Assembly (NCBI GenBank): GCA_028708845.1 | Contig: JAQVXZ010000007.1 | Span: 20,898 to 84,897, forward strand | Direction: 5' to 3' | From: Bacteroidales bacterium | Lineage (GTDB): Bacteria; Bacteroidota; Bacteroidia; Bacteroidales; P3 | Length of the DNA stretch: 64,000 nt | Notes under the pieces: generated by a model | Seen by the model: the letters and a program-made list of their open reading frames with translations, nothing else | Database searches by the model: none | Told to the model about the DNA's origin: nothing | Made by a program: the position numbers and the translations under genes | Shown: piece after piece, positions 26,904 to 38,476 of the stretch | Layout of the letters: every line of letters begins with the position of its first letter | How positions within the stretch are numbered: the stretch's first letter is position 1

Positions 26904-28166
26904 ATGTCAAAGGAAGAAACAATAGAACAGCTATTAAAAGATAATATAATCCTCTCCACAGGATGCACCGAACCAGTAGCAGTAGCACTCTGTGTAGCCA
27001 AAGCAAAAGAAGTTTTAGGACAGACACCCCAACGAATAGAACTACATATAAGCCAAAACATCATCAAGAACGCAATGGGAGTAGGCATACCAGGCACAGG
27101 AATGATAGGCTTGCCAATAGCCATAAGCCTAGGCGTAGTATGTGGAGAAAGCTCAAAAGGCTTAGATGTCCTAAACTGCAAAAAAGAATATATACCAATA
27201 GCCAAAGACTGGCTAAACAACCATAAGATAGAAATCTTTCACGCAAAAGACGTAGACAAACTCTATATCGAATGCATAGCTTATGCAGATAACCAAAGCT
27301 CGAAAGTAATAATAGCAAAGACACATCAAAACATAATACATATCCAAAAGAATGATGAGGTATTATTTAGTGTAGAAATAGAGACAGAAAAGCCAAAAGA
27401 CATAGACAACAACCTAACAATCACCCTAAAAGACGTATATGACTATGCAACCCAAACCCCAATCTCAAGACTAAGTTGGATATTAGAGACAATACCAGTA
27501 ATAGAGGCAGCATCCCTAGAAGGACTAAGAGGCGACTATGGTTTGAAAATAGGCAAAATACTAATGAGCGATGAAGAAACCTCAGTTCGTAAGCGAGTAA
27601 TAGCCAAGACCTGTGCCGCATCCGATGCAAGAATGGGCGGAGCCACAGCACCAGTCTACACCAACTCAGGCTCAGGCAACCAAGGCATAACATGCACCCT
27701 ACCAATATACGAATTTAGCAAAGAAACCTCTAAGACCGAAGAAGAACTAATCAGAGCCCTAATGCTATCCCACCTAAGCTCCACCTACGTAAAACAATAT
27801 ATTGGCAGATTATCAGCCCTTTGTGGACTAGTAAACGCATCCATAGGCGTATCAGCAGGCTTAGTACTCTTACAAGGCGGAAGCTACTCACAAGTTTGTT
27901 ATTCAATCAAAAACATGATAAACACCCTAACAGGCATGATATGTGATGGAGCCAAACCCTCATGTTCCCTCAAGATGTCAGTAGCCTTAGGCTCAGCCTT
28001 CGACTCATCCACCCTAGCCATTCGCAACATAGAAGTAGAACCAACCGATGGCATAAGCGAAAAATCAATCGAACGCTCCATCAAAAACTTAGGCAAAATA
28101 GGACGCTACGGCATGGACTCAATAGATGACTTAATCCTAGAAATCCTAACCAATAAGGAGGTCTAA
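26904..28166 (+). CDS. UPF0597 / L-cysteine desulfidase-like (serine dehydratase alpha-like) protein
   Basis: STGCTEPVAVALCVAKAKE near the N-terminus, SGSGNQG, and CDGAKPSC motifs. Confidence 0.7.
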   Translation: MSKEETIEQLLKDNIILSTGCTEPVAVALCVAKAKEVLGQTPQRIELHISQNIIKNAMGVGIPGTGMIGLPIAISLGVVCGESSKGLDVLNCKKEYIPIAKDWLNNHKIEIFHAKDVDKLYIECIAYADNQSSKVIIAKTHQNIIHIQKNDEVLFSVEIETEKPKDIDNNLTITLKDVYDYATQTPISRLSWILETIPVIEAASLEGLRGDYGLKIGKILMSDEETSVRKRVIAKTCAASDARMGGATAPVYTNSGSGNQGITCTLPIYEFSKETSKTEEELIRALMLSHLSSTYVKQYIGRLSALCGLVNASIGVSAGLVLLQGGSYSQVCYSIKNMINTLTGMICDGAKPSCSLKMSVALGSAFDSSTLAIRNIEVEPTDGISEKSIERSIKNLGKIGRYGMDSIDDLILEILTNKEV

Positions 28167-28215
28167 GGTCGAAGGTCGAAGGTCAAAGGTCGAAGGTCTA
28201 AGGTCGAAGGTCTTT
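28160..28215 (+). repeat. 8 x 7-nt tandem repeat GGTCGAA that contains the stop codon of the preceding gene
   Basis: GGTCTAA GGTCGAA GGTCGAA GGTCAAA GGTCGAA GGTCTAA GGTCGAA GGTCTTT. The first unit holds the TAA at 28164-28166. Confidence 0.9.
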
Positions 28216-28786: not shown

Positions 28787-30289
28787 ATGGCAGAAGTGAA
28801 TAATGCGGATATAGGTTTTGAGGATAAGATATGGAAGGCGGCAGACCTTTTGAGAGGTAATATGGATGCATCGGAATATAAGTCGGTGGTATTGGGATTG
28901 ATTTTCTTAAAGTATATATCGGATAGGTTTGAGATAAGATATAAGGAACTGGTGGATGAGGGAGAAGGTTTTGAGGAGGACAGGGATGAATATACTTCGG
29001 AATCGGTCTTTTATGTGCCACAAGATTCTAGGTGGGATGTGATTGCAAAAAAGGCAAGAACTCCAGAAATTGGTATTGCTATTGATGATGCTATGAGGCA
29101 TATTGAGAAAGAGAATATTAAACTTAAAGGGATATTGCCTAAGAACTTTTCACGACCAGAGCTTGACAAAAGACGACTTGGAGATGTGGTTGACTTGTTT
29201 ACTAACTTTAAGATGCACACCAAAGACGAGTCAAAGGATGTCTTGGGCAGAGTATATGAGTATTGCCTTTCTAAGTTTGCAGAAGCAGAGGGAAAACTTG
29301 CAGGAGAGTTCTATACCCCAGCTTGCATTGTTCGTACACTTGTTGAGATATTACAACCCCTAAGTGGTAGAGTTTATGACCCTTGCTGTGGAAGTGGTGG
29401 TATGTTTGTTCAGAGTGCAAAGTTTATAGAATCCCATGCAGCAAACATAAATAATATATCGGTCTATGGTCAGGACTCCAACCCAACAACTTGGAAGATG
29501 GCGATGATGAACCTTGCAATACGTGGCATAGAGGCAGACCTTGGCAAGTTTAATGCAGATACATTCTTTAATGATTCACACCCCAACCTAAAGGCAGATT
29601 ACGTGTTAGCAAATCCACCCTTCAACCTTTCCGACTGGGGAGGCGACAAGTTATCATCAGATATACGTTGGAAATATGGCTTACCACCAAACGGAAATGC
29701 CAACTATGCTTGGATACAACATATAATTCACCACCTATCAGAAAACGGAAAAGCAGGTATAGTACTTGCCAACGGATCCCTAAGCACACAGACCTCAGGA
29801 GAAGGAGAGATAAGACGTAAGATGATAGAAGATGATATTGTGGAGGGGATAATAGCAATGCCATCCCAACTATTCTATACAACACAAATCCCTGTTTCAA
29901 TTTGGATACTTAACAAGAATAAAAAACAAAAAGGCAAAACCCTATTTGTTGATGCAAGGAATCTCGGCACAATGGTTACCCGTAAGCTACGACAACTAAC
30001 CGATGAAGACATTAACCTAATAGCCCTAACCTTCAAAGCTTTTCAAGAAGGAATACTAAATAAAGAAAAAGGTTTTAGTGCAATAGCTGATCTAGAAACC
30101 ATAGCAAAACAAGACTATATTCTAACACCAGGCAGATACGTAGGAATAGCAGACCAGGAAGAAGACTCCGAACCATTTGAAGAAAAAATGACACGCCTAA
30201 CCACCGACCTAAAAGATCTATTTAATAAATCCCACGACCTAGAACAAGAAATAAAAACCCAACTAAAAAAGATAGGGTATGAATTATAA
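28787..30289 (+). CDS. hsdM: type I restriction-modification system methyltransferase subunit M
   Basis: HsdM N-terminal domain (IWKAADLLRGNMDASEYKSVVLGLIFLKYISD), AdoMet motif DPCCGSGGMF, and catalytic NPPFN. Confidence 0.95.
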   Translation: MAEVNNADIGFEDKIWKAADLLRGNMDASEYKSVVLGLIFLKYISDRFEIRYKELVDEGEGFEEDRDEYTSESVFYVPQDSRWDVIAKKARTPEIGIAIDDAMRHIEKENIKLKGILPKNFSRPELDKRRLGDVVDLFTNFKMHTKDESKDVLGRVYEYCLSKFAEAEGKLAGEFYTPACIVRTLVEILQPLSGRVYDPCCGSGGMFVQSAKFIESHAANINNISVYGQDSNPTTWKMAMMNLAIRGIEADLGKFNADTFFNDSHPNLKADYVLANPPFNLSDWGGDKLSSDIRWKYGLPPNGNANYAWIQHIIHHLSENGKAGIVLANGSLSTQTSGEGEIRRKMIEDDIVEGIIAMPSQLFYTTQIPVSIWILNKNKKQKGKTLFVDARNLGTMVTRKLRQLTDEDINLIALTFKAFQEGILNKEKGFSAIADLETIAKQDYILTPGRYVGIADQEEDSEPFEEKMTRLTTDLKDLFNKSHDLEQEIKTQLKKIGYEL

Positions 30290-30369
30290 GAAATTAATAT
30301 CAATTTCGCGACCTAACGAAAATGATATTTTTATTGATAAAAACGATGTATATATACGATTCGACAATT

Positions 30370-30397
30370 GTAGAGACGCGATTAATCGCGTCTCTAC
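30370..30397. repeat. perfect 28-nt palindrome GTAGAGACGCGATTAATCGCGTCTCTAC (copy 1), REP-like
   Basis: Read directly. 12-bp GC-rich stem with a TTAA loop, preceded by CGACAATT. Confidence 0.9.
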
Positions 30398-30486
30398 CGA
30401 CGACAACAACACCTACAATAATTAAAATACGGGTAAAATGATATGCGACAATAATTATATTATGGGTAAAATGATATGCGACAATT

Positions 30487-30514
30487 GTAGAGACGCGATT
30501 AATCGCGTCTCTAC
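30487..30514. repeat. perfect 28-nt palindrome (copy 2), identical to copy 1
   Basis: Read directly. Also preceded by GCGACAATT. The 22-nt sequence gggtaaaatgatatgcgacaat is itself duplicated at 30431-30452 and 30464-30485. Confidence 0.9.
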
Positions 30515-30532
30515 CAAGGACAACAATAAATT

Positions 30533-31789
30533 ATGAATAATTGGGAAAAGGTAACATTAGGGGAGATAATAATATCTGCTAATACTGGATTAGATGCAAT
30601 CAAAAGAGCACCAATTGTAGATATTGATACGGGAATAAAATGTATTAGAATACAAGATATATCTCAATCTAAAAAATATGAAAATTGGGGATACACTAAT
30701 GTTGATGAAAAGAATTTTAAAAAATTCCAATTAAAACAAAATGATATAATAATTGCTAGGACAGGTGCTACTATTGGAGTAAATATTAGAATAAAAAATG
30801 ATTTAAATGCGGTCTATAATAATGGACTAATAAGAATCAGAGTAAATAATCAAATATGTAATCCTATTTATTTATATTATAATATTAGAACATCTAATTA
30901 TTATGGTTTTATTGATTCTATTTCAGGGGGCACTTCATCTCAACCAAATATGCAAATAAATGCATTACTAAGATTTGAAATTAATCTTCCACCTCTTGAT
31001 GAGCAAAAACGTATTGCTGATGTTTTGAGTGCTTTGGATGATAAGATTGAGATAAATAATAAGATTAATGAGAACCTTGAAGCACAAGCACAGGCAATAT
31101 TTAAGCAGTGGTTTGTGGATTTTGAATTTCCAGATCAAGAAGGCAAACCATATAAAACAAATGGTGGAAAATTTATTGATTCAGAATTAGGAGAAATCCC
31201 TTTAGGGTGGAAGATTGATTCTGCTGAAAATATTTTTGACATTTCTATTGGCAAAACACCTCCAAGAAAAGAACCAATTTGGTTTTCAAAAGACAAAATG
31301 GATGTTACATGGGTTTCTATTTCAGATATGGGGAGAGAGGGTGTTTATATATCTAATAGTTCAGAATACTTAACACGTGATGCAATAAAGAAATTTAATG
31401 TTGTAGTAGTCCCTGAAAATACAGTGCTACTAAGTTTTAAGCTAACAGTTGGTAGAATATCAATTACAGATGGTGAAGTAACAACAAATGAAGCAATAGC
31501 GCATTTTAAAACAAATAACAAGACATATACAAATTATATTTATCAATATCTTAAAGTTTATGATTATCAATCAATGGGTAATACTTCTTCAATTGCAAAT
31601 GCAGTTAATTCAAAGATTATTAAAGTAATGAAGATAATATTACCTTCTGATAACATACTGAAAGACTTCTATGATATTGTTAATCCAATAATGATGAGCA
31701 TAAAAAGGAATGAACAAGAAAATAAAACCCTTTCAGAGCTTAGGGATAGTTTGTTGATTAAATTAATGAGTGGGGAGGTTAGAGTATGA
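30533..31789 (+). CDS. hsdS: type I restriction-modification system specificity subunit S
   Basis: Two target-recognition domains separated by the conserved central helix LPPLDEQKRIADVLSALDDKIEINNKINENLEAQAQAIF. C-terminal conserved helix ...LSELRDSLLIKLMSGEVRV. Confidence 0.9.
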   Translation: MNNWEKVTLGEIIISANTGLDAIKRAPIVDIDTGIKCIRIQDISQSKKYENWGYTNVDEKNFKKFQLKQNDIIIARTGATIGVNIRIKNDLNAVYNNGLIRIRVNNQICNPIYLYYNIRTSNYYGFIDSISGGTSSQPNMQINALLRFEINLPPLDEQKRIADVLSALDDKIEINNKINENLEAQAQAIFKQWFVDFEFPDQEGKPYKTNGGKFIDSELGEIPLGWKIDSAENIFDISIGKTPPRKEPIWFSKDKMDVTWVSISDMGREGVYISNSSEYLTRDAIKKFNVVVVPENTVLLSFKLTVGRISITDGEVTTNEAIAHFKTNNKTYTNYIYQYLKVYDYQSMGNTSSIANAVNSKIIKVMKIILPSDNILKDFYDIVNPIMMSIKRNEQENKTLSELRDSLLIKLMSGEVRV

Positions 31790-31790
31790 A
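31759..31790 (+). repeat. direct repeat DR1a (functional hsdS 3' end)
   Basis: taaattaatgagtggggaggttagagtatgaa matches 32740-32771 at 28 of 32 positions. Confidence 0.85.
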
Positions 31791-32691
31791 ATATTATTGT
31801 AATATTAAATTAAATAATGATTATCGTTTTTCTAAAGAAATACTGAATTTTATTCTACCTTTAGAAATTAATACAATAAATGGTATAGTAAACGGTAAGT
31901 TAATTATGCCTAATAGAATTTCAAACAGAGATTTATATTTTGAAAATGATTCAATTAAGATGGATATTGTATATTTAGGTACAGAACTTGAGTCTTTTTT
32001 TTTAATTAATGCAATTTATTGCGAGTTTGAATTAGAAAAAAATGATGAATTAGATTTATACTATGGTATAAGTAATAAGTTGTATAGTTTATCAAATATC
32101 CTTAGATGCTATCCGAAAAATATATTAGATAAATGTTGTTGTTCTGATAATAAAATAAATAAAATTGATTTTAAATTATTTTCAGATGATGGAAAAGAAA
32201 TAAAAGATCAAAAGCTTTACGGGGTAGGATATAAAAACGAAAAAGATTGTATTGATATTTTTATAATACGTCGTATATTGCTTCTATTAAAATATAATGC
32301 TAAACCTAGTATTACATATCAATTATTAAATGAAGCAAAAGATATGGAAGATAATAATGATTATAGACATGCAATTATTAATTGTTGTACAATTTGCGAG
32401 ATTGTTTTTTCAAAATTACTCGTTGATAAATTGACTAAAAATGGTTCTAAGAAGAACGACATAGAGAAAATACTTAATAATATTAATGGAATTGCTGCAT
32501 TAGGAAAATTATTAAAAGAATTTGAAATAAAAACAATTAAAGCTGATTTTGGTAATTTAGCAGGATTAAGAAATAAATCAGCACATATGGGAATTTTACC
32601 AAACAGTGAAGACTGTAGTAAGTATATAAAAGTTTGTGAAGAACTTTTAAAATATCATAGAATTAAGTTTTATAAAATAGAAAAATCATAG
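31786..32691 (+). CDS. uncharacterised 301-aa protein: unknown Cys-rich N-terminal domain plus a C-terminal HEPN-like (Rx4H, DUF4145-like) domain
   Basis: Its ATG overlaps the hsdS stop (ATGA at 31786-31789). The C-terminus has YRHAIINCCTICEIVFSKLL ... LAGLRNKSAHMG (R at 32569-32571, H at 32584-32586). No Walker A motif. Confidence 0.5.
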   Translation: MKYYCNIKLNNDYRFSKEILNFILPLEINTINGIVNGKLIMPNRISNRDLYFENDSIKMDIVYLGTELESFFLINAIYCEFELEKNDELDLYYGISNKLYSLSNILRCYPKNILDKCCCSDNKINKIDFKLFSDDGKEIKDQKLYGVGYKNEKDCIDIFIIRRILLLLKYNAKPSITYQLLNEAKDMEDNNDYRHAIINCCTICEIVFSKLLVDKLTKNGSKKNDIEKILNNINGIAALGKLLKEFEIKTIKADFGNLAGLRNKSAHMGILPNSEDCSKYIKVCEELLKYHRIKFYKIEKS

Positions 32692-32739
32692 AATATGCAA
32701 GAAATACGAACTTCTCATAGATTGAAACTTATTATTGCC

Positions 32740-32771
32740 TAAATTGATGGGTGGGGAGGTTAGGGTGTGAA
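32740..32771 (+). repeat. direct repeat DR1b: relic of an hsdS 3' end (reads ...LLLPKLMGGEVRV-stop)
   Basis: taaattgatgggtggggaggttagggtgtgaa. The frame is closed 10 codons upstream, so it is a remnant and not a gene. Confidence 0.8.
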
Positions 32772-32856
32772 TTTAAAATTATAAAAATTGATGCAGATTA
32801 TACTAATGTATTATAGAAAATTAATTCCGCAATTGTACAATTAAAAATATACTATT

Positions 32857-33582
32857 ATGAATGAAGAAAAAATTGAAGAAAAAGTTGAAAAGCTTTTAAA
32901 TTGTAAAGAAACCACGAGAATATTTGGATATTCAGAGAGAGGAATATTAAATTCTTTAATGTTTGAAATTAGCAAAGATAAAAAGTTAATGATTGAGTTT
33001 TTGAAACTGCTCCCTGAAGAAATAGCGGTAAAAATCGGAACTCCAGCTTGTTTTAAAATCCTTCTTGATCATTCTTTATCTGGTTTTGGCAGTCCAGACT
33101 TGATTGTTATTGCTCATTATATTAAGCCTGAAGATAAAAAAGTAATATTTTTGGAAGCAAAGGTGCAAACTTTAGGTCATCAAAATTGGAATTTACAAGC
33201 TCTTTATGATAATTATGTTGGTGTTAGTGTAGATAATTATAAGCAACGGAAAATGGGTTCTAATCTATTTTTTCAATTAAAACTCAAAAGGTCCTTAGTT
33301 GAAAACCTAGATACAATTAGAGAAAATAACCTAATAGAAGTTGGAGTAGTAAGTAAAAAAATAGGTAATAATGCAATAGTGTTAAGGACTGTAGATATGA
33401 TTGATTATGCAGCTGAGTATTTTTATGTTGGAATTGTTCCTCACTGTAATTTTAGTCAAAGTGAGGAGGATAAAGAAAAATATAATTTTTTATTATGGAA
33501 AGATATTGAAAAATTTTGTGAGAAGAATAAATTGCAAAATGTACTGGACATGTTTGATTATAATAAAGGACAGATATATTAG
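32857..33582 (+). CDS. uncharacterised 241-aa protein with a PD-(D/E)xK nuclease-like motif set
   Basis: SERGILNSLMFE (helix Glu) ... GFGSPDLIVIAHY ... KKVIFLEAKVQT (D at about 33097, E-A-K at about 33154). The perfect palindrome AATTGTACAATT sits at 32830-32841 upstream. Confidence 0.45.
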   Translation: MNEEKIEEKVEKLLNCKETTRIFGYSERGILNSLMFEISKDKKLMIEFLKLLPEEIAVKIGTPACFKILLDHSLSGFGSPDLIVIAHYIKPEDKKVIFLEAKVQTLGHQNWNLQALYDNYVGVSVDNYKQRKMGSNLFFQLKLKRSLVENLDTIRENNLIEVGVVSKKIGNNAIVLRTVDMIDYAAEYFYVGIVPHCNFSQSEEDKEKYNFLLWKDIEKFCEKNKLQNVLDMFDYNKGQIY

Positions 33583-33606
33583 TAGCCGATAAATCCAATG
33601 CAACAT

Positions 33607-33636
33607 AACGCTATTTTGGAGATATTCAAAGATAAT
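33607..33636 (+). repeat. direct repeat DR2a: relic of an hsdR 5' end (reads MQHNAILEIFKDN...)
   Basis: aacgctattttggagatattcaaagataat matches 35486-35515 inside the hsdR start at 28 of 30 positions. Confidence 0.85.
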
Positions 33637-33716
33637 AGATGCTTAGTAGTTTAGAGAATGAGCACAATGTTAAAAAAGCTTTATTTTTAGTCGAATATTC
33701 TTTGGTTTTAGCAATC

Positions 33717-33760
33717 AGTCCTAAATATTGGCAAAACTTGGGACTTAAATAATGTTAAAT
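33717..33760 (+). promoter_or_regulatory. 44-nt repeat unit R1 upstream of abiEi (candidate operator)
   Basis: agtcctaaatattggcaaaacttgggacttaaataatgttaaat contains the inverted half-sites AGTCC...GGACT. A related copy lies at 33800-33843 and a partial one at about 33690. Confidence 0.4.
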
Positions 33761-33799
33761 TTGTGAGATTATAGTTTATTTTCGTTGTTTTCATTGGTT

Positions 33800-33843
33800 A
33801 GTCCGAAATATTGTATAAATTTGCGACTTAATAATTGTTAAAT
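33800..33843 (+). promoter_or_regulatory. 44-nt repeat unit R2 overlapping the abiEi promoter (candidate operator)
   Basis: agtccgaaatattgtataaatttgcgacttaataattgttaaat. It ends 3 nt before the abiEi ATG. Confidence 0.4.
33816..33823 (+). promoter_or_regulatory. -7 box TAAATTTG for abiEi-abiEii
   Basis: 23 nt upstream of the ATG at 33847. Confidence 0.45.
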
Positions 33844-33846
33844 ATT

Positions 33847-34458
33847 ATGAGTGTTAGTATTTTTGATACTGTAAGAAAATTAGTTTTGGAGAAAGAAATG
33901 GGAGAAATTCTATTTGTTTCTGATTTTTCTCATCTTAATGATGATGAGTCTGTAAACAAAATTCTATCAAGATTGGTTCATGAAGGGAGATTGGAAAGGA
34001 TATCGAGAGGTATATATTTAAAGGCTAAGAAGACTGATTTCGGTTCTTTAATTCCTTCTTTGGATGAAATTGCACATGCTATTGCTAAGAGGGATAAGGT
34101 TAAGATATTCCCTTCTGGCAATACTGCTCTAAATATGTTAGGCTTAAGCACTCAAGTTCCAATGGTTGCTGAATATATTACAACAGGATCTACAAGAACG
34201 GTTAAGGTTGGAAAAAGAAAAATTGTTTTCTCTAATTCTACTCCTAAAAACTTTGAATATAAAAATGAATTGATTCATCTTATTGTTGTTGCAATGAAGA
34301 AGATTGGGCAGAAAAATATAAGTGATGAGGATATTGAGGTTATTCAGAATTTACTTTCTGATAGGGATAGTATAGAGAACTGGAAAGAGGACATTCAACT
34401 TGCTCCTGTGTGGATAAGGAAGATAATAATAAACTTAATTGAAAATATTGAGCTATGA
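33847..34458 (+). CDS. abiEi: AbiEi-family type IV antitoxin / transcriptional regulator
   Basis: N-terminal winged-helix segment ...VNKILSRLVHEGRLERISRGIYLK. It overlaps the downstream AbiEii gene by 4 nt. Confidence 0.75.
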   Translation: MSVSIFDTVRKLVLEKEMGEILFVSDFSHLNDDESVNKILSRLVHEGRLERISRGIYLKAKKTDFGSLIPSLDEIAHAIAKRDKVKIFPSGNTALNMLGLSTQVPMVAEYITTGSTRTVKVGKRKIVFSNSTPKNFEYKNELIHLIVVAMKKIGQKNISDEDIEVIQNLLSDRDSIENWKEDIQLAPVWIRKIIINLIENIEL

Positions 34459-35447
34459 GTTTGTGGATTAATCTTGGATTGGATGAGAGAAAAGTACTTA
34501 TTCAACAAACAGCAGAAAAAGAAGGAATACCTGATTTGGCAGTGGAAAAAGACTGGTGGGTTACTATTGTTTTGAAAGCTTTGTTTTCTTGTTCTTGCAA
34601 TAAGCATCTATTGTTTAAAGGTGGAACTTCATTAAGTAAGGGCTGGAATATTATAGAAAGGTTTTCAGAAGATATTGATATTGCTTTGGATAGGTCGCGC
34701 TTTGCCTTAGCTTGCGATAACCGTACCCAAATAAATATTCTTAGAAAAGAGTCAAGAGTTTTTATTGAGAAAGAATTAATGCCAGAGTTAAATAAAAATC
34801 TCATAGCTTTGGTGGGAAATGAAACTTTCGAGATTGAATTTATTGAAAATATCAACTCAACAACTGATCCTACTGTGATTAATGTTGTTTATAAAAGTAT
34901 TTTAGATAATAGGGTTGAGTATATTAAGAATATAGTAAAGATTGAAATTAGTTGTTTGTCTCTTTCTGACCCTAATGAAAAGAGGGATATTTCCTCGCTT
35001 ATATATAAGTATTATCCGAATGTTGATAATGATTCTTCTTGTCAGATTAATACCGTTTTACCTCAAAGAACCTTTTTAGAAAAAATCTTTCTACTTCATG
35101 AGGAGTTTCAAAAACCAAACCCCAGAACTGAGAGAATGTCAAGGCATTTATATGATTTAGAGAAGTTGATGCAGATTAAAGAAGTGATAGTGTCCTTGAA
35201 TGATATGGTACTATACAATACTATTGTTGAACATCGAAAGAAGTTTAATAAGATAAGCAGTGTTGTTAATTCTCTTTATTCACCAGAAAAGATTAATATT
35301 ATTCCCCCTGATTTGATTTATAAGGATTGGGAAAAGGATTATTCAGATATGAAAAAATCATTTATTTATGGTGATTCTCTTAGTTTTGCAAAGCTTATTG
35401 AAAGGATAAGAGAGCTTCAAGATATAATACGTAATTTAGAAAACTAA
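34455..35447 (+). CDS. abiEii: AbiEii/AbiGii-family nucleotidyltransferase toxin
   Basis: NTase signature LLFKGGTSLSKGWNIIERFSEDIDIALD, and C-terminal RHLYDL. Confidence 0.85.
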   Translation: MSLWINLGLDERKVLIQQTAEKEGIPDLAVEKDWWVTIVLKALFSCSCNKHLLFKGGTSLSKGWNIIERFSEDIDIALDRSRFALACDNRTQINILRKESRVFIEKELMPELNKNLIALVGNETFEIEFIENINSTTDPTVINVVYKSILDNRVEYIKNIVKIEISCLSLSDPNEKRDISSLIYKYYPNVDNDSSCQINTVLPQRTFLEKIFLLHEEFQKPNPRTERMSRHLYDLEKLMQIKEVIVSLNDMVLYNTIVEHRKKFNKISSVVNSLYSPEKINIIPPDLIYKDWEKDYSDMKKSFIYGDSLSFAKLIERIRELQDIIRNLEN

Positions 35448-35458
35448 ACTAACCGCCT

Positions 35459-38400
35459 ATGACCTTTTCTGAGAACAATTTTGAGAACGCTATTTTGGAG
35501 ATATTTAAGGATAATCTTGGATATCAGTATTTCTATGGTCCTGATGTTAAGAGGGATTTCCAATCTCCATTTCATGAGGATTTGCTTGTGGGGTCTTTGT
35601 TTGAGATAAACTCTATGTTACCTAAGGAAGCCATTAATGAGGCTATTTATAAGCTGAAGAATGTGGAGACTGGCACTTTGGTGCAGAGAAATATTAGGTT
35701 TATGGATATGCTTCAGAATGGGGTGGAGGTTAATTATTATGATGGTAAGGAGCAGAGGTCATCGAGGGTGAAGCTAGTGGATTTTGAGAATGTGGATAGG
35801 AATATCTTTTCGGTAGCTAATCAATGGACTTTTGAGGAGTTTTCTCTTAAGAGGGCAGATATTATTGTTTTTGTTAATGGTCTGCCGCTTGTTGTGGTGG
35901 AACTTAAATCGCCTTCGAGACAGGAAACTGATGTTAGTGCTGCGTATAGGCAACTTAGAAATTATATGAAAGAGATTCCTTCTTTGTTTGCCTTTAATGC
36001 TTTTGTGGTTATGAGTGACCAGGCGTTTTCTAAGGCTGGGACTATTACGGCAAGTGAGGATAGGTTTATGGAGTGGAAGACTGTGGATGGTGGGTATGAG
36101 AATACTAAGCACGCTAGTTTCGATACTTTGTTTGAGGGTATGTTTGAGAAGAGGAGGTTATTGGATATTATTCAAAACTTTATTTGTTTTTCTAAGCAGG
36201 GTAAAGAGGAGGCTAAGATTTTGGCTGGTTATCATCAATATTATGCTGTTCGTAAGGCTATTAGTTCTACGGAAAAGGCTGTATTGTCTGATGGGAAGGG
36301 TGGAGTTTTTTGGCATACTCAAGGGAGTGGTAAGTCGCTGTCGATGGTCTTTTATGCTAAGCTTTTGCAGGAGAGTTTGAACTCGCCTACTATTGTGGTT
36401 ATTACGGATAGGAATGATTTGGATGATCAGCTTTTTTCTCAGTTTGCTTCTTGTCAGGATTTCCTTCGTCAAGTGCCTGTTCAAGCTCAGTCACGATCTC
36501 ATCTTACTCAGCTTTTGAATGGGAGAAAGGCTAATGGGATTTTCTTTTCCACTATGCAGAAGTTTGAGCAGGGGAGTGAACCACTTTCTGAGAGAAGGAA
36601 TATTATTGTTGTGGCTGATGAGGCTCACCGTAGCCAGTATGGTTTGGAGGAGAGGATTACTAAGGAGGGTGAGATTAAGATTGGGGCGGCTCGGATTATT
36701 CGTGATTCTCTGCCTAATGCTACATTTATTGGTTTTACCGGTACTCCTATTTCTTTAAAAGATAGGTCAACTCGTGAGGTATTTGGTGATTATATTGATG
36801 TTTATGATATGACTCAGTCGGTGGAAGATGGGGCAACTCGTCCTGTCTTTTATGAGAGTAGGGTTATTAACTTGAAGCTTAATGACGAGGTTTTAAGGCT
36901 TATTGATGATGAGTATGATAGGCTGGCAGATGAGGCTGAGGGTTATGCTATTGAGAGGAGTAAGAGGAGTTTGGGGCGTTTGGATAGCATATTAGGGAGT
37001 GATAAGACGATTGAGAGTTTGTGTGATGATATTCTTATTCATTATGAGGAGTGTCGTCAGTATGAACAGACAGGTAAGGCTATGATTGTTGCTTATTCGA
37101 GGGAGATTGCACTTAAGATTTATCATAGGTTACTTTTTTTAAGACCTTCTTGGACTGATAAGGTGGCGGTTGTGATGACTTCTTCGAATGATGACCCTGA
37201 AGAGTGGAGGGAGATTATTGGCAATAAAACGCATAAGGATGAGCTTGGAAGGAGGTTTAAGGATAATGAGGATAGCCTGAAAATTGCTATTGTTGTGGAT
37301 ATGTGGCTTACTGGTTTCGATGTTCCTTCGCTTTCTACTATGTATGTTTATAAGCCTATGAGGGGACATAATCTTATGCAGGCTATTGCTAGGGTTAATA
37401 GGGTTTATAAGGATAAGCAAGGGGGTTTGATTGTGGATTATGTTGGGATAGCTTCTGCTTTGAAACAGGCTATGAATGACTATACCAAGAGAGACCAATC
37501 GAATTTTGGAGAACAGGATATTGCTAAGACTGCTTATAGGGAGTTTAGGAATAAGTTAATGGTTTGTAGGGACCTTATGCATGGGTTTGACTTTGGAGGT
37601 TTTCTTACGGCAACAGATCTTGAGAGGGCTAAGCTTATAAGTGGTGCTGTTAACTTTCTGTCTGACAAAAGGAGAGAGGAAACAAAAAAGACATTTATTA
37701 AGGAGGCGCTACTGCTTCATAATTTCTTATCGCTTTGCAAGAGTATTGTTGAGTATGATGATAGGATTGAGGCGGCATATTTTGAGGCTGTGAGGACTTT
37801 GATAACAAGGGTTTTGTCTCCTGGAAAGATTTCTCTAAGGGAGATAAACCAAAGGGTTAATGATCTACTTTCTCAGAGCATTAAGAGTGAGGGGGTGATT
37901 AATTTATTTTCCGATTTTGAGAAAGAGTTTTCGCTTTTCGACCCTAAGTTCTTGGAGGATATTCGAAATATGAAGGAGAGGAATATTGCTATTGAGCTTT
38001 TGAAGAAGTTGATTGCTGAGCAGGTTCATGTTTATCAGAGGACTAATGTTGTTAAGAGTGAGAAGTTTTCGGATATGTTATCTAATGCTATGAGTAATTA
38101 TTTGAAAGGACTACTTACTAATGAAGAGGTTATTCAGGAACTTATTAGTATGGCTCATCAGATTATGAATGCCGATAAGGAAAATTCTGAACTAGGTTTG
38201 AGTAGTGAGGAGCAGGCTTTCTATGACGCCTTAACTAAGCCTGAAAATGTGAAAGATTTCTTTGAAAATGACCAGCTAATTGCTATCACAAAAGAGCTTA
38301 CAGAGGCTTTGCAGAAAAATAAGACAATTGATTGGCAGAAGAAAGAAACAGCAAGAGCAGGTATGAGGAGGATTATTAAGAGGCTTTTGAAGAAATACAA

Positions 38401-38476
38401 CTACCCACCAGAAAAAACCGATGATGCATTGGAAACGATTTATCGTCAGTGTGAGATGTGGGCAGATAATTTGTAA
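35459..38476 (+). CDS. hsdR: type I restriction endonuclease subunit R
   Basis: N-terminal nuclease motif ADIIVFVNGLPLVVVELKS, helicase motif I TQGSGKS, motif II VADEAHRSQ, motif VI QAIARVNR, and a C-terminal HsdR helical domain. Confidence 0.95.
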   Translation: MTFSENNFENAILEIFKDNLGYQYFYGPDVKRDFQSPFHEDLLVGSLFEINSMLPKEAINEAIYKLKNVETGTLVQRNIRFMDMLQNGVEVNYYDGKEQRSSRVKLVDFENVDRNIFSVANQWTFEEFSLKRADIIVFVNGLPLVVVELKSPSRQETDVSAAYRQLRNYMKEIPSLFAFNAFVVMSDQAFSKAGTITASEDRFMEWKTVDGGYENTKHASFDTLFEGMFEKRRLLDIIQNFICFSKQGKEEAKILAGYHQYYAVRKAISSTEKAVLSDGKGGVFWHTQGSGKSLSMVFYAKLLQESLNSPTIVVITDRNDLDDQLFSQFASCQDFLRQVPVQAQSRSHLTQLLNGRKANGIFFSTMQKFEQGSEPLSERRNIIVVADEAHRSQYGLEERITKEGEIKIGAARIIRDSLPNATFIGFTGTPISLKDRSTREVFGDYIDVYDMTQSVEDGATRPVFYESRVINLKLNDEVLRLIDDEYDRLADEAEGYAIERSKRSLGRLDSILGSDKTIESLCDDILIHYEECRQYEQTGKAMIVAYSREIALKIYHRLLFLRPSWTDKVAVVMTSSNDDPEEWREIIGNKTHKDELGRRFKDNEDSLKIAIVVDMWLTGFDVPSLSTMYVYKPMRGHNLMQAIARVNRVYKDKQGGLIVDYVGIASALKQAMNDYTKRDQSNFGEQDIAKTAYREFRNKLMVCRDLMHGFDFGGFLTATDLERAKLISGAVNFLSDKRREETKKTFIKEALLLHNFLSLCKSIVEYDDRIEAAYFEAVRTLITRVLSPGKISLREINQRVNDLLSQSIKSEGVINLFSDFEKEFSLFDPKFLEDIRNMKERNIAIELLKKLIAEQVHVYQRTNVVKSEKFSDMLSNAMSNYLKGLLTNEEVIQELISMAHQIMNADKENSELGLSSEEQAFYDALTKPENVKDFFENDQLIAITKELTEALQKNKTIDWQKKETARAGMRRIIKRLLKKYNYPPEKTDDALETIYRQCEMWADNL
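35486..35515 (+). repeat. direct repeat DR2b (functional hsdR 5' end)
   Basis: aacgctattttggagatatttaaggataat; partner of 33607-33636. Confidence 0.85.

Follow-up and report, generated by a model that had tools for sequence, protein, structure and literature searches.

How defence genes come to lie inside restriction-modification operons is a question raised directly by the type I operon in the 64,000-nt stretch of Bacteroidales DNA analysed here (called the window, or W, throughout; L-numbers denote the sister loci compared with it). The operon is chromosomal, has the order hsdM-hsdS-cargo-hsdR, and consists of seven genes, all on the forward strand, with four non-hsd genes in the same orientation between hsdS and hsdR. 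Among these four lie short copies of the 3′ end of hsdS and of the 5′ part of hsdR, which are the remains of displaced hsd alleles, and which are probably scars of the recombination that brought in defence genes together with new hsd genes. The features on which the argument turns are as follows.

28787–30289, forward strand: hsdM (Pfam N6_Mtase PF02384, 5.9e-108; HsdM_N PF12161, 2.3e-29)
30533–31789, forward strand: hsdS, resident allele (Pfam Methylase_S PF01420 in two stretches; PADLOC Specificity_I over the full length)
31751–31790, forward strand: hsdS repeat, copy 1; the conserved 3′ end of the resident hsdS, ending in LLIKLMSGEVRV and the stop codon
31786–32691, forward strand: 301-aa gene, its start sharing an ATGA overlap with the hsdS stop codon
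32702–32771, forward strand: hsdS 3′ relic, with a secure core at 32732–32771; L084 and L086 have intact hsdS ends that are colinear with it
32857–33582, forward strand: 241-aa gene
33607–33636, forward strand: hsdR 5′ relic, nt 28–57 of a displaced hsdR; 30/30 identical to the hsdR of L004
33847–34458, forward strand: abiEi (DUF6088 type), from the ATG at 33847; the TTG at 33835 is a possible alternative start
34455–35447, forward strand: abiEii, nucleotidyltransferase toxin (Pfam PF08843, PADLOC)
35445–35515, forward strand: hsdR repeat, copy 2; the conserved 5′ module of the resident hsdR, about −14 to +57
35459–38476, forward strand: hsdR (Pfam HSDR_N PF04313, PF18766 and PF11867; PADLOC REase_I, 1.4e-294)

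This map agrees with the genes assigned in the initial annotation, which was made from the sequence alone. The hsdM, hsdS and hsdR genes are intact open frames; hsdS encodes two recognition domains and a conserved C-terminal LLPKLMSGE motif (C-termini were compared across 80 loci), and HsdR has an HSDR_N nuclease domain, an SWI2/SNF2 motor and a C-terminal helical domain (T1RH-like). The abiEii stop codon lies 11 nt before the hsdR ATG. The locus is an ordinary type I operon with embedded defence genes.

The two repeats are relics of displaced hsd alleles

The end of hsdS (31759–31790) recurs at 32740–32771 with 28 of 32 positions identical, as the initial annotation reported, and a repeat finder extends the match to 31751–31790 and 32732–32771 (33/40). 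A 25-nt core of this repeat, with up to three mismatches allowed, is present at two sites only in the 64 kb and at none in 100 shuffles, and translation of the second copy gives ELLID, a stop codon, NLLLPKLMGGEVRV and a further stop, the frame being closed upstream as described. The hsdR repeat (35486–35515 and 33607–33636) is likewise identical at the 28 of 30 positions first given, confined to two sites in the window, and without a match in 100 shuffles. Several details of the initial description need amendment. The hsdR-like copy lies in a small frame, MQHNAILEIFKDNRCLVV, that continues for five further codons after the hsdR-like part before its stop codon rather than stopping directly, and it begins 24 nt, not 25 nt, past the stop codon of the 241-aa gene. 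It is derived from hsdR as claimed, although from an internal segment (nt 28–57) and not from the true start. The hsdS copy, said to follow immediately on the 301-aa gene, belongs to a relic that reaches beyond the 32 nt first noted and probably begins at about 32702, some 10 nt past the stop codon of that gene.

The doubt was also raised that the short matches might be a common motif unrelated to hsd genes; within the window they are restricted to the sites above, and in the other loci that were scanned such fragments turned up only at the ends of hsd genes or between them. Assembly artefacts are ruled out, since the same junctions occur in contigs from independent samples: the junction of the 301-aa gene, relic and 241-aa gene is present in L082 and L083, that of the 241-aa gene, relic and AbiE in L081, L084 and L086–L089, and L089 (another metagenome-assembled genome) and L081–L083 reproduce the junctions of the window.

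For comparison, 80 loci were fetched with HsdM, and further contigs through homologues of both orphan cargo proteins; three of the loci are especially informative. First, L084 has the order hsdM, DUF3800, a 148-aa gene, hsdS, a homologue of the 241-aa gene (90%), abiEi, abiEii, a 41-aa frame, HigB-like, HTH-M78 and hsdR. Positions 32732–35494 of the window are 95.4% identical to L084 4069–6822 over 2766 nt, whereas outside this block hsdM is only 85% and hsdR only 79% identical. The block begins 39 nt before the stop codon of the intact L084 hsdS, and the window copy is therefore the end of that gene. Its right end lies at +36 of the window's intact hsdR, the counterpart of which in L084 is a stub (the 41-aa frame), followed by the HigB-like and HTH/M78 cargo and a different hsdR. 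Each locus thus keeps intact the end that is reduced to a stub in the other, and the two record mirror-image events.

Secondly, L086 (hsdM, hsdS, a 241-aa homologue at 85%, the same hsdR stub, and the AbiE upstream region, where the contig ends) has an intact hsdS whose end aligns to window 32702–32771, and the block after it is 92% identical. The window and L086 are also 100% identical between 28610, which lies 177 nt before hsdM, and about 29350, and L086 thus probably represents the same species and site. Neither L084 nor L086 contains the 301-aa gene; in both, an intact hsdS continues at 92–95% identity into the sequence that forms the relic and 241-aa gene of the window, and the target-recognition domains of the resident window hsdS differ from theirs. 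Relative to these intact ends the 5′ 30 nt of the hsdS relic are more decayed and carry a 3-nt deletion; 32732–32771, and probably the whole segment from 32702, is the last 40–70 nt of a displaced hsdS allele.

Thirdly, L004 (hsdS, SMODS, SLATT_4, a 227-aa membrane protein gene, a 241-aa homologue at 46%, and hsdR, with no AbiE) encodes an HsdR closely related to that of the window (95% in protein, 92.5% in DNA). Its intact hsdR directly follows the 241-aa homologue and matches the window hsdR relic at 30 of 30 positions. The 3′ end of the 241-aa gene and the spacer downstream of it are colinear with L004 except for a deletion of about 50 nt in the window just upstream of the hsdR relic, which includes the start codon. 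Both copies are therefore genuine relics of hsd ends, the intact alleles being in place in L084, L086 and L004, and variants differing in the presence of each cassette, with junctions at the repeats, do exist: L084 and L086 are without the 301-aa gene, and L004 is without AbiE. These alignments establish the identity of the relics, the allelic series and the positions of the breakpoints.

Arrival of the 301-aa gene with a new hsdS

It had been proposed that the 301-aa gene arrived as a cassette through the conserved hsdS end. The breakpoints with L086 and L172 point instead to arrival with a whole new hsdS allele. L172–L177 and L170 have the same hsdS allele and 301-aa gene (96.9–99.6% DNA identity; 96.9% from hsdS through the 301-aa gene in L172), followed by a 229-aa gene (encoding a 227-like protein), a 244-aa gene and then an hsdS stub, which in L172 is at least 105 nt long and of a different allele from that of the window. 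Homology between the window and L172 stops at 32697, 6 nt past the 301-aa stop codon and at the ATG of the 229-aa gene of L172, past which the window continues into the old hsdS stub. The donor-side breakpoint thus coincides with the start of a non-hsd gene, and is therefore arbitrary and not in an hsd end. Derivation of the window from an L172 type by simple deletion was considered and rejected, the hsdS stubs being different alleles and the downstream sequences unrelated.

On the other side, sliding identity to L086 falls after about 29350 inside hsdM, which is a mosaic: 100% identical to L086 until about 29350, 93–98% identical to L004 from about 29330 to 29780, and then close to neither. 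The 301-aa gene thus appears to be a passenger of the new hsdS allele, in a replacement that begins within hsdM and reaches 6 nt beyond the stop codon of the 301-aa gene, and is found between direct copies of the hsdS end because it is sited between the new hsdS and the old hsdS stub. The incoming piece would be at most about 3.3 kb (29350–32697) and would comprise part of hsdM, the palindrome-bearing spacer described below, the new hsdS and the 301-aa gene; we infer that its outer crossover was homologous and that its inner end was joined to the old hsdS some 40–70 nt short of where that gene ends.

The 301-aa protein has homologues in only two other clusters among 5.8 billion clustered proteins; NCBI contains an identical protein from a metagenome-assembled genome of an uncultured Bacteroidales bacterium. 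The C-terminal 110 residues or so are near-invariant across the three clusters, whereas the N-terminal 190 residues are far less conserved (compared with P0002 and P0003), which suggests either strong constraint on that C-terminal half or its recent exchange. The C-terminal half is predicted to be helical, and the protein contains an RNKSAH motif of the Rx4-6H type (R262-N-K-S-A-H267) that is invariant in the three clusters; one database source names it 'HEPN domain-containing'. There is no match to it in Pfam, NCBIfam or PADLOC, hence none to a curated HEPN profile, and its structure model (built from 3 sequences, mean pLDDT 56) is too poor for a fold search; the C-terminal half is best described as putatively HEPN-like. 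L085 also has a homologue (48%) after hsdS with the same ATGA overlap, and the overlap is likewise present in L172. A wrecked locus, L171 (GCA_028685225.1, JAQUEH010000011.1, 1–3000), keeps a truncated, 202-aa homologue, in the order hsdS 3′-end-like stretch, 202-aa homologue, 183-aa gene, IS200-type Y1 transposase and a 268-nt stretch that is 78% identical to an hsdR 3′ end.

An older core around the 241-aa gene

A third relic, absent from the initial annotation, lies between the hsdS relic and the 241-aa gene.

32777–32863, forward strand: relic of a 227-like gene; the first 24 codons or so, decayed, with an in-frame stop and no start codon

Its translation, DADYTNVL-stop-KINSAIVQ, corresponds to MDYTKVLEEINSATVQ of the 227-aa membrane protein of L004. 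From this position it follows that the older core had the order displaced hsdS, 227-like gene, 241-aa gene, displaced hsdR, which is the order still present in L004. The ancestral order first suggested, with the 241-aa gene alone between hsdS and hsdR, does not stand, as the 227-like relic intervenes; no single locus among those compared has that exact arrangement. The 241-aa gene would be the oldest intact cargo of the window. Residues E27, D81, E100 and K102 of its product are invariant in 36 homologues. The structure model is good (pLDDT 85.5). None of its fold matches is significant, and the best of them, which are weak (E 0.35–1.6), are to restriction enzymes, EndoMS and a Shedu nuclease. 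Solved structures searched by profile gave no match, and no Pfam, NCBIfam or PADLOC family is assigned. The protein is a candidate PD-(D/E)xK nuclease, as predicted from the invariant residues and the modelled fold.

The AbiE cassette on the hsdR side

Two further features lie between the hsdR relic and abiEi.

33637–33667, forward strand: unmatched stretch of about 31–33 nt, from the hsdR relic to the start of the AbiE cassette homologous to that of L003
33695–33843, forward strand: AbiE upstream region, containing two 66-nt direct repeats (73% identical)

AbiEi has DUF6088, AbiEi_3_N and AbiEi_4 matches, and PADLOC identifies AbiEi and AbiEii (8.7e-64 and 1.8e-97); the two genes overlap by 4 nt (34455–34458), and the arrangement of an AbiE type IV toxin-antitoxin system is present. 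In each of the 66-nt repeats AGTCC and GGACT form inverted arms separated by about 20 nt, and there is a TAnnTTTG box like that of Bacteroidetes promoters; the repeats are kept in L003 (16770–16940) even though the AbiE genes are only 73% identical; they probably constitute a double operator and promoter for autoregulation by AbiEi.

L003 has a cassette homologous (73%) to the window cassette from about 33668 onward; there, too, AbiE lies directly before hsdR and follows an hsdR stub (L003 16704–16746). The left junctions differ, however, the L003 stub ending at +39 and abutting the cassette, and the window stub ending at +57 with about 33 unmatched nt after it, and each stub resembles the hsdR family of its own locus. 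To judge from these junctions, related cassettes seem to have been captured separately in the two loci. The L004 state may be ancestral, with AbiE a gain in the window, or it may descend from an AbiE-bearing ancestor with an intact stub, through deletion between the repeats.

Stubs in other type I operons

Stubs were sought in 170 loci with DNA probes of all hsdR 5′ ends and a peptide pattern for the hsdS end, and the junctions were then aligned. Peptide regular expressions missed the window hsdR relic, because it lacks the FE residues, and DNA probes of all alleles were used in their place; probes for hsdS 5′ and hsdR 3′ ends were too noisy, since hsdS starts are not anchored, and only the hsdM 3′ stub of L005 was confirmed by hand. 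In all, some 14 stubs are present, spread over some 11 related operons from Bacteroidota and Bacillota (around ten from the hsdR 5′ end, four from the hsdS 3′ end and one from the hsdM 3′ end), independence of the events being judged from differing adjoining sequences.

hsdR 5′ stub, W: right boundary +57, then AbiE
hsdR 5′ stub, L084: right boundary +36, then HigB-like and HTH/M78
hsdR 5′ stub, L003: right boundary +39, then AbiE
hsdR 5′ stub, L001 and L085: right boundary +45, then DarT-DarG
hsdR 5′ stubs, L004 (two): right boundaries +22 and +36, then the 227-aa gene and the 241-aa homologue
hsdR 5′ stubs, L007 (two): +550, then −40 to +3; then an ABC ATPase and DUF4276
hsdR 5′ stub, L047 (Lachnospiraceae): about +53–78, then Schlafen/AlbA_2 and PDC-S50
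hsdR 5′ stub, L053 (Anaeromassilibacillus): about +42–100, then PD-Lambda-3
hsdS 3′ stubs: W, L170/L172, L009 (about 75–83 nt) and L021 (about 38–46 nt)
hsdM 3′ stub, L005: 3294–3382, 89 nt, about 90% identical to resident 2720–2808, after a small membrane-protein gene behind hsdM

Several patterns emerge. Most of the hsdR stubs begin 8–13 nt before the hsdR ATG, with no gap between them and the stop codon of the gene ahead. On the hsdS side the junctions are at −38, −72, −75 and at least −105, and the sequence past each stub junction is unrelated; in L009 and L021 the hsdS stub runs through its stop codon to the ATG of homologous 250-aa genes, and the genes inserted behind the resident hsdS of these two loci are unrelated to each other. 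The L005 stub shows that the same type of scar is also formed at the hsdM boundary. Where allelic comparison permits polarity to be read, the cargo next to hsdM, hsdS or hsdR is the newest and the central cargo is older. All of the cargo that can be named is of defence type: AbiE, DarTG, an OLD-like ATPase-TOPRIM, SMODS with SLATT, PD-Lambda-3 and -4, PDC-S31, PDC-S50, and an ABC ATPase with DUF4276. A metagenome scan with HsdR recovered relatives at 66–70% only, largely in human-gut contigs, and added almost no stubs, from which it follows that the scars are not universal; the scan says little about the frequency of stubs.

A separate conserved piece, TACCTTTGTAA(n)AACTAACCGTCAAA, precedes hsdR in L005, L009, L017, L020–L022, L026 and L030, whichever gene lies upstream. 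It holds a TAnnTTTG box, and isolated copies of this piece alone are found within the cargo of L007, L010, L011 and L110.

Exchange through the hsd ends

L001 and L085 share DarT-DarG-hsdR at 99.25% identity (26 mismatches in 3484 nt) from the right edge of the stub onward; their 58-nt stubs differ at 10 sites, and all of the sequence upstream is unrelated. A crossover therefore took place within or at the stub, and the stub or the true hsdR end served as a short homology. At two sites, CGC[T/C]T before the ATG and TTT[T/C]GAG, stub and resident alleles are swapped between these loci (T,T in the resident and C,C in the stub of L001; C,C in the resident and T,T in the stub of L085), a pattern that exchange between the two copies would give; such sites are very few. 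High-identity blocks between the window and L084 likewise end within the conserved ends. On the hsdS side, the block shared by L084 and L086 starts in the central conserved region of hsdS and continues onward; 90–95% identity of the window to relatives is confined to that central region and the 3′ end. The suggestion that hsd ends are landing pads for defence cargo is thus borne out across the family as far as exchange at these ends is concerned; as to whether the joining is homologous or illegitimate, the evidence points to both.

How the scars may have formed

Our favoured explanation, which we consider probable, is that the repeats are recombination scars left by one-sided homologous replacement with a non-homologous inner join, followed by later shuffling through the ends; we infer the order of events, this combination of homologous and illegitimate steps, and the direction of the AbiE event. 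New DNA would enter from one side as a module made up of an hsd gene and the adjoining defence gene or genes. Its outer crossover would be homologous, placed in or beyond an hsd gene, which is hsdM or hsdS for the left side and hsdR for the right. Its inner end would be joined, with no extended homology, within a terminal segment of the hsd gene already there, and of that gene only a stub would survive: the last 40–105 nt or so of hsdS, or about −13 to between +22 and +57 of hsdR. Repetition of the process would give the layered order, with the oldest cargo central and the newest abutting hsdS or hsdR. In the window, the old core would be the 227-like fragment and the 241-aa gene, the left side would have been overwritten by the 3′ part of hsdM, the spacer, the new hsdS and the 301-aa gene, and AbiE and hsdR would have been added on the right. 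The conserved ends of about 50 nt and the relics would then act as short homologies for module exchange and possibly for deletion of cargo.

The donor-side ends of the modules are arbitrary (the start codon of the following gene in one case, a site 33 nt ahead of a cassette in another, and in L001 a site 30 nt short of the stop codon of a non-hsd gene, the 30-nt 3′ stub of which precedes the hsdR relic), and this, with the varied recipient coordinates and the lack of a recombinase, fits a one-sided anchor with a non-homologous join. Several points weigh on the other side. First, the recipient joins cluster, with 8–9 of 10 in the first 100 nt of the 3-kb hsdR, concentrated in its first 60 nt or so, and all four hsdS joins in the last 105 nt or so of the 1.25-kb hsdS, and such clustering needs either selection against or erosion of long stubs (harm is plausible from a stub that keeps a recognition domain, or from an N-terminal piece of HsdR), or guidance by homology. 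Secondly, the ends of four independent hsdR relics fall inside a 10-nt interval, +36 to +45, and the identical relic-DarT junction of L001 and L085 stands on diverged relic alleles, as a homologous crossover out of register predicts. Thirdly, the ATG/AATATG and A-rich runs shared at the junctions are compatible with microhomology but are not distinctive in DNA of 25% G+C; no donor for the AbiE event was recovered among the compared loci; and most of the comparators are metagenome contigs, some of them short, with L170 error-prone. Finally, we know of experimental demonstrations of one-sided homologous and illegitimate integration only in naturally transformable bacteria, and not in Bacteroidales.

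The alternative that survives best, although we think it rather unlikely, is that the hsd ends are landing pads and nothing else: cargo units would carry an inner hsd-end repeat, the donor relic would pair out of register, and both crossovers would be homologous and RecA-dependent, so that cargo is added rather than swapped, and the copies could recombine to release a circle that re-enters by a single crossover. The shared relic-DarT junction of L001 and L085 and the alleles swapped between them are what this process would leave, and it would account for the ends of the high-identity blocks inside the conserved ends (at −39 and +36), for the close spacing of the four relic ends, and for the two relics of L004 being closer to each other than to the resident hsdR. 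However, it cannot make the first relic, and three junctions do not fit it: the 301-aa module of the window stops where a non-hsd gene has its ATG, AbiE is joined on its left differently in the window and in L003, and the left junction of L001 sits in a non-hsd gene. Moreover, repeats of 30–70 nt with 83–93% identity are a poor substrate for RecA, and circular forms have not been observed. A fuller version, which we hold doubtful, is that the hsdS 3′ and hsdR 5′ ends (about 40–60 nt) constitute a recombinase-free cassette system, with units that carry one copy of the end, circle out and re-insert at the matching end of any related type I operon by host homologous recombination alone; were this true, type I operons would act like integrons for defence genes.

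It is improbable that the stubs are the eroded remains of complete second copies of hsdS or hsdR in tandem, in which case they would be uninformative about the sites of joining. L007 does retain a 550-nt hsdR 5′ fragment 93% identical to the resident gene, and L072, L077 and L080 have two to four direct hsdS genes with cargo between them; the window hsdR relic has itself lost about 50 nt, and the hsdS stub is at least 105 nt long in L172 against about 70 nt in the window. L007 apart, however, the hsdR stubs end within the first 100 nt or so and the hsdS stubs start within the last 105 nt or so, no intermediates of 150–500 nt or longer are found among the roughly 14 stubs although these would be detectable, and the sequence abutting the stubs is incoming module rather than hsd-derived.

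A dedicated site-specific system of integron or transposon type, with the hsd ends as attachment sites or target-site duplications, is highly improbable. It would explain why the newest cargo adjoins the supposed site, as in integron arrays, and why the cargo is in a single orientation, but no recombinase, transposase or integrase is encoded in the operon or within 10 kb (flanking genes were scanned), no terminal inverted repeats are found in or near the operon, and the junctions range from +22 to +550 and from −38 to −105. Transposon target-site duplication in particular was rejected on the length and divergence of the repeats (30–70 nt at 83–93% identity, far longer than known target duplications) as well as on the missing transposase and inverted repeats. 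Chance or low-complexity similarity in AT-rich DNA (the cargo is 22–33% G+C), or a short functional motif unrelated to hsd, has a negligible probability given the empty shuffles for either repeat and the colinearity of both copies and their flanks with intact hsd genes in sister loci.

Setting of the operon and the hsdM-hsdS spacer

The operon is flanked by housekeeping genes, on one side those for an aldolase, SurE, LpxB, thioredoxin and serine dehydratase, and on the other by those for two T9SS-sorted leucine-rich-repeat proteins, a class II aminoacyl-tRNA synthetase and Rho. The G+C content is about 40% in hsdM and hsdR and 22–33% in hsdS and the cargo. About eight tandem heptamers (AGGTCGA/AGGTCTA) at 28159–28212 extend over the serine dehydratase stop codon, and between this array and hsdM are 570 nt without a long open frame. 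The spacer between hsdM and hsdS, part of the incoming piece proposed above, has a repeat structure of its own.

30290–30532: hsdM-hsdS spacer, 244 nt; two 51-nt direct repeats (30359–30409 and 30476–30526, 94% identical)

These repeats flank a 2 × 33-nt tandem repeat (30415–30480), and each contains a perfect, G+C-rich 28-nt palindrome, GTAGAGACGCGATTAATCGCGTCTCTAC. The spacer has a single near-identical copy in each of L001 and L003, and in L004 and L086 hsdS follows almost directly on hsdM with no such spacer; the exact 28-nt palindrome is absent from every fetched locus. The spacer repeats could have arisen as the scar of one more junction; they could also be a regulator site or a small mobile hairpin element.

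Relation to known systems

In type I families the target-recognition domains of hsdS are shuffled by homologous recombination in the conserved central and C-terminal regions. The breakpoints described here lie in the same conserved hsdS segments, but shuffling is in register and leaves no stub, whereas in the window family non-hsd genes are moved and duplicated ends are left behind. Homology-facilitated illegitimate recombination has been shown experimentally in Acinetobacter, Pseudomonas stutzeri and Streptococcus pneumoniae; the window has the corresponding homologous switch (in hsdM) and an inner join without extended donor homology, but the clustering of recipient joins in short conserved segments is not predicted by the classical process. 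The likeness to integron arrays lies in single orientation, serial accretion, the newest unit beside a fixed site, and a short repeat between units, with L004 presenting a series of two relics and a resident end, and L084 also two. Unlike integrons, the window family has no integrase and no structured attC-like site, its junctions are variable, and its repeat is a piece of a neighbouring gene.

The embedding of defence genes in type I operons is itself established, as with PrrC in EcoprrI and TgvAB in Vibrio cholerae VPI-2, and a 'guilt-by-embedding' survey (Payne et al. 2024, bioRxiv 10.1101/2024.01.29.577857) leaves open why and how embedding arises. The window operon resembles these in having defence or toxin-antitoxin genes between hsdS and hsdR in the orientation of the operon, and the cargo of its family (AbiE, DarTG, OLD-like ATPases and nucleases) matches the cargo types of such surveys. 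These studies describe contents and protection; the hsd-end stubs, layered order and allelic series seen in the window family are absent from the papers searched. Restriction genes of the E. coli immigration control region are reported to be replaced in cassette-like fashion between conserved flanks (Sibley and Raleigh 2004, cited in PMC12707154), and alternative defence sets are similarly swapped at a fixed chromosomal site; there the anchors are housekeeping flanks and whole systems are exchanged, whereas here the anchors are hsd ends and cargo accumulates in one operon.

Phase-variable type I loci (pneumococcal SpnIII/tvr and 'epigenetic invertons'; PMC7672463, PMC6265443) are similar in having partial hsdS genes near a complete hsdS; they also have a recombinase. 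As a rule these partial genes are inverted and bear recognition domains, and an invertase makes use of them, whereas the window stub is direct, 40–70 nt long and free of recognition domains, with no recombinase nearby. A phase-variable hsdS shufflon was accordingly rejected for the window, where no inverted hsdS repeats were found and no site-specific recombinase is adjacent. We found no prior account of hsd-end stubs, of the layered order, or of cargo travelling with a new hsdS or hsdR in the openly accessible literature. The scars are a form of known recombination-driven turnover and not a new kind of system.

Implications for embedded defence genes

Many anti-phage genes have been found through their location in restriction-modification, BREX or similar operons, with the route by which they came there left open. 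The scars are a direct physical record that cargo accretes at hsd gene boundaries, and that incoming cargo can be accompanied by a new subunit, either of specificity or of nuclease type. The gene order of such an operon becomes readable as its history, with the ends of about 50 nt as repeated breakpoints, and predictions that can be tested follow for junction positions, RecA dependence and circular intermediates. The stubs also provide a search rule for genome surveys, in which hsd-end stubs delimit and date embedded defence modules.

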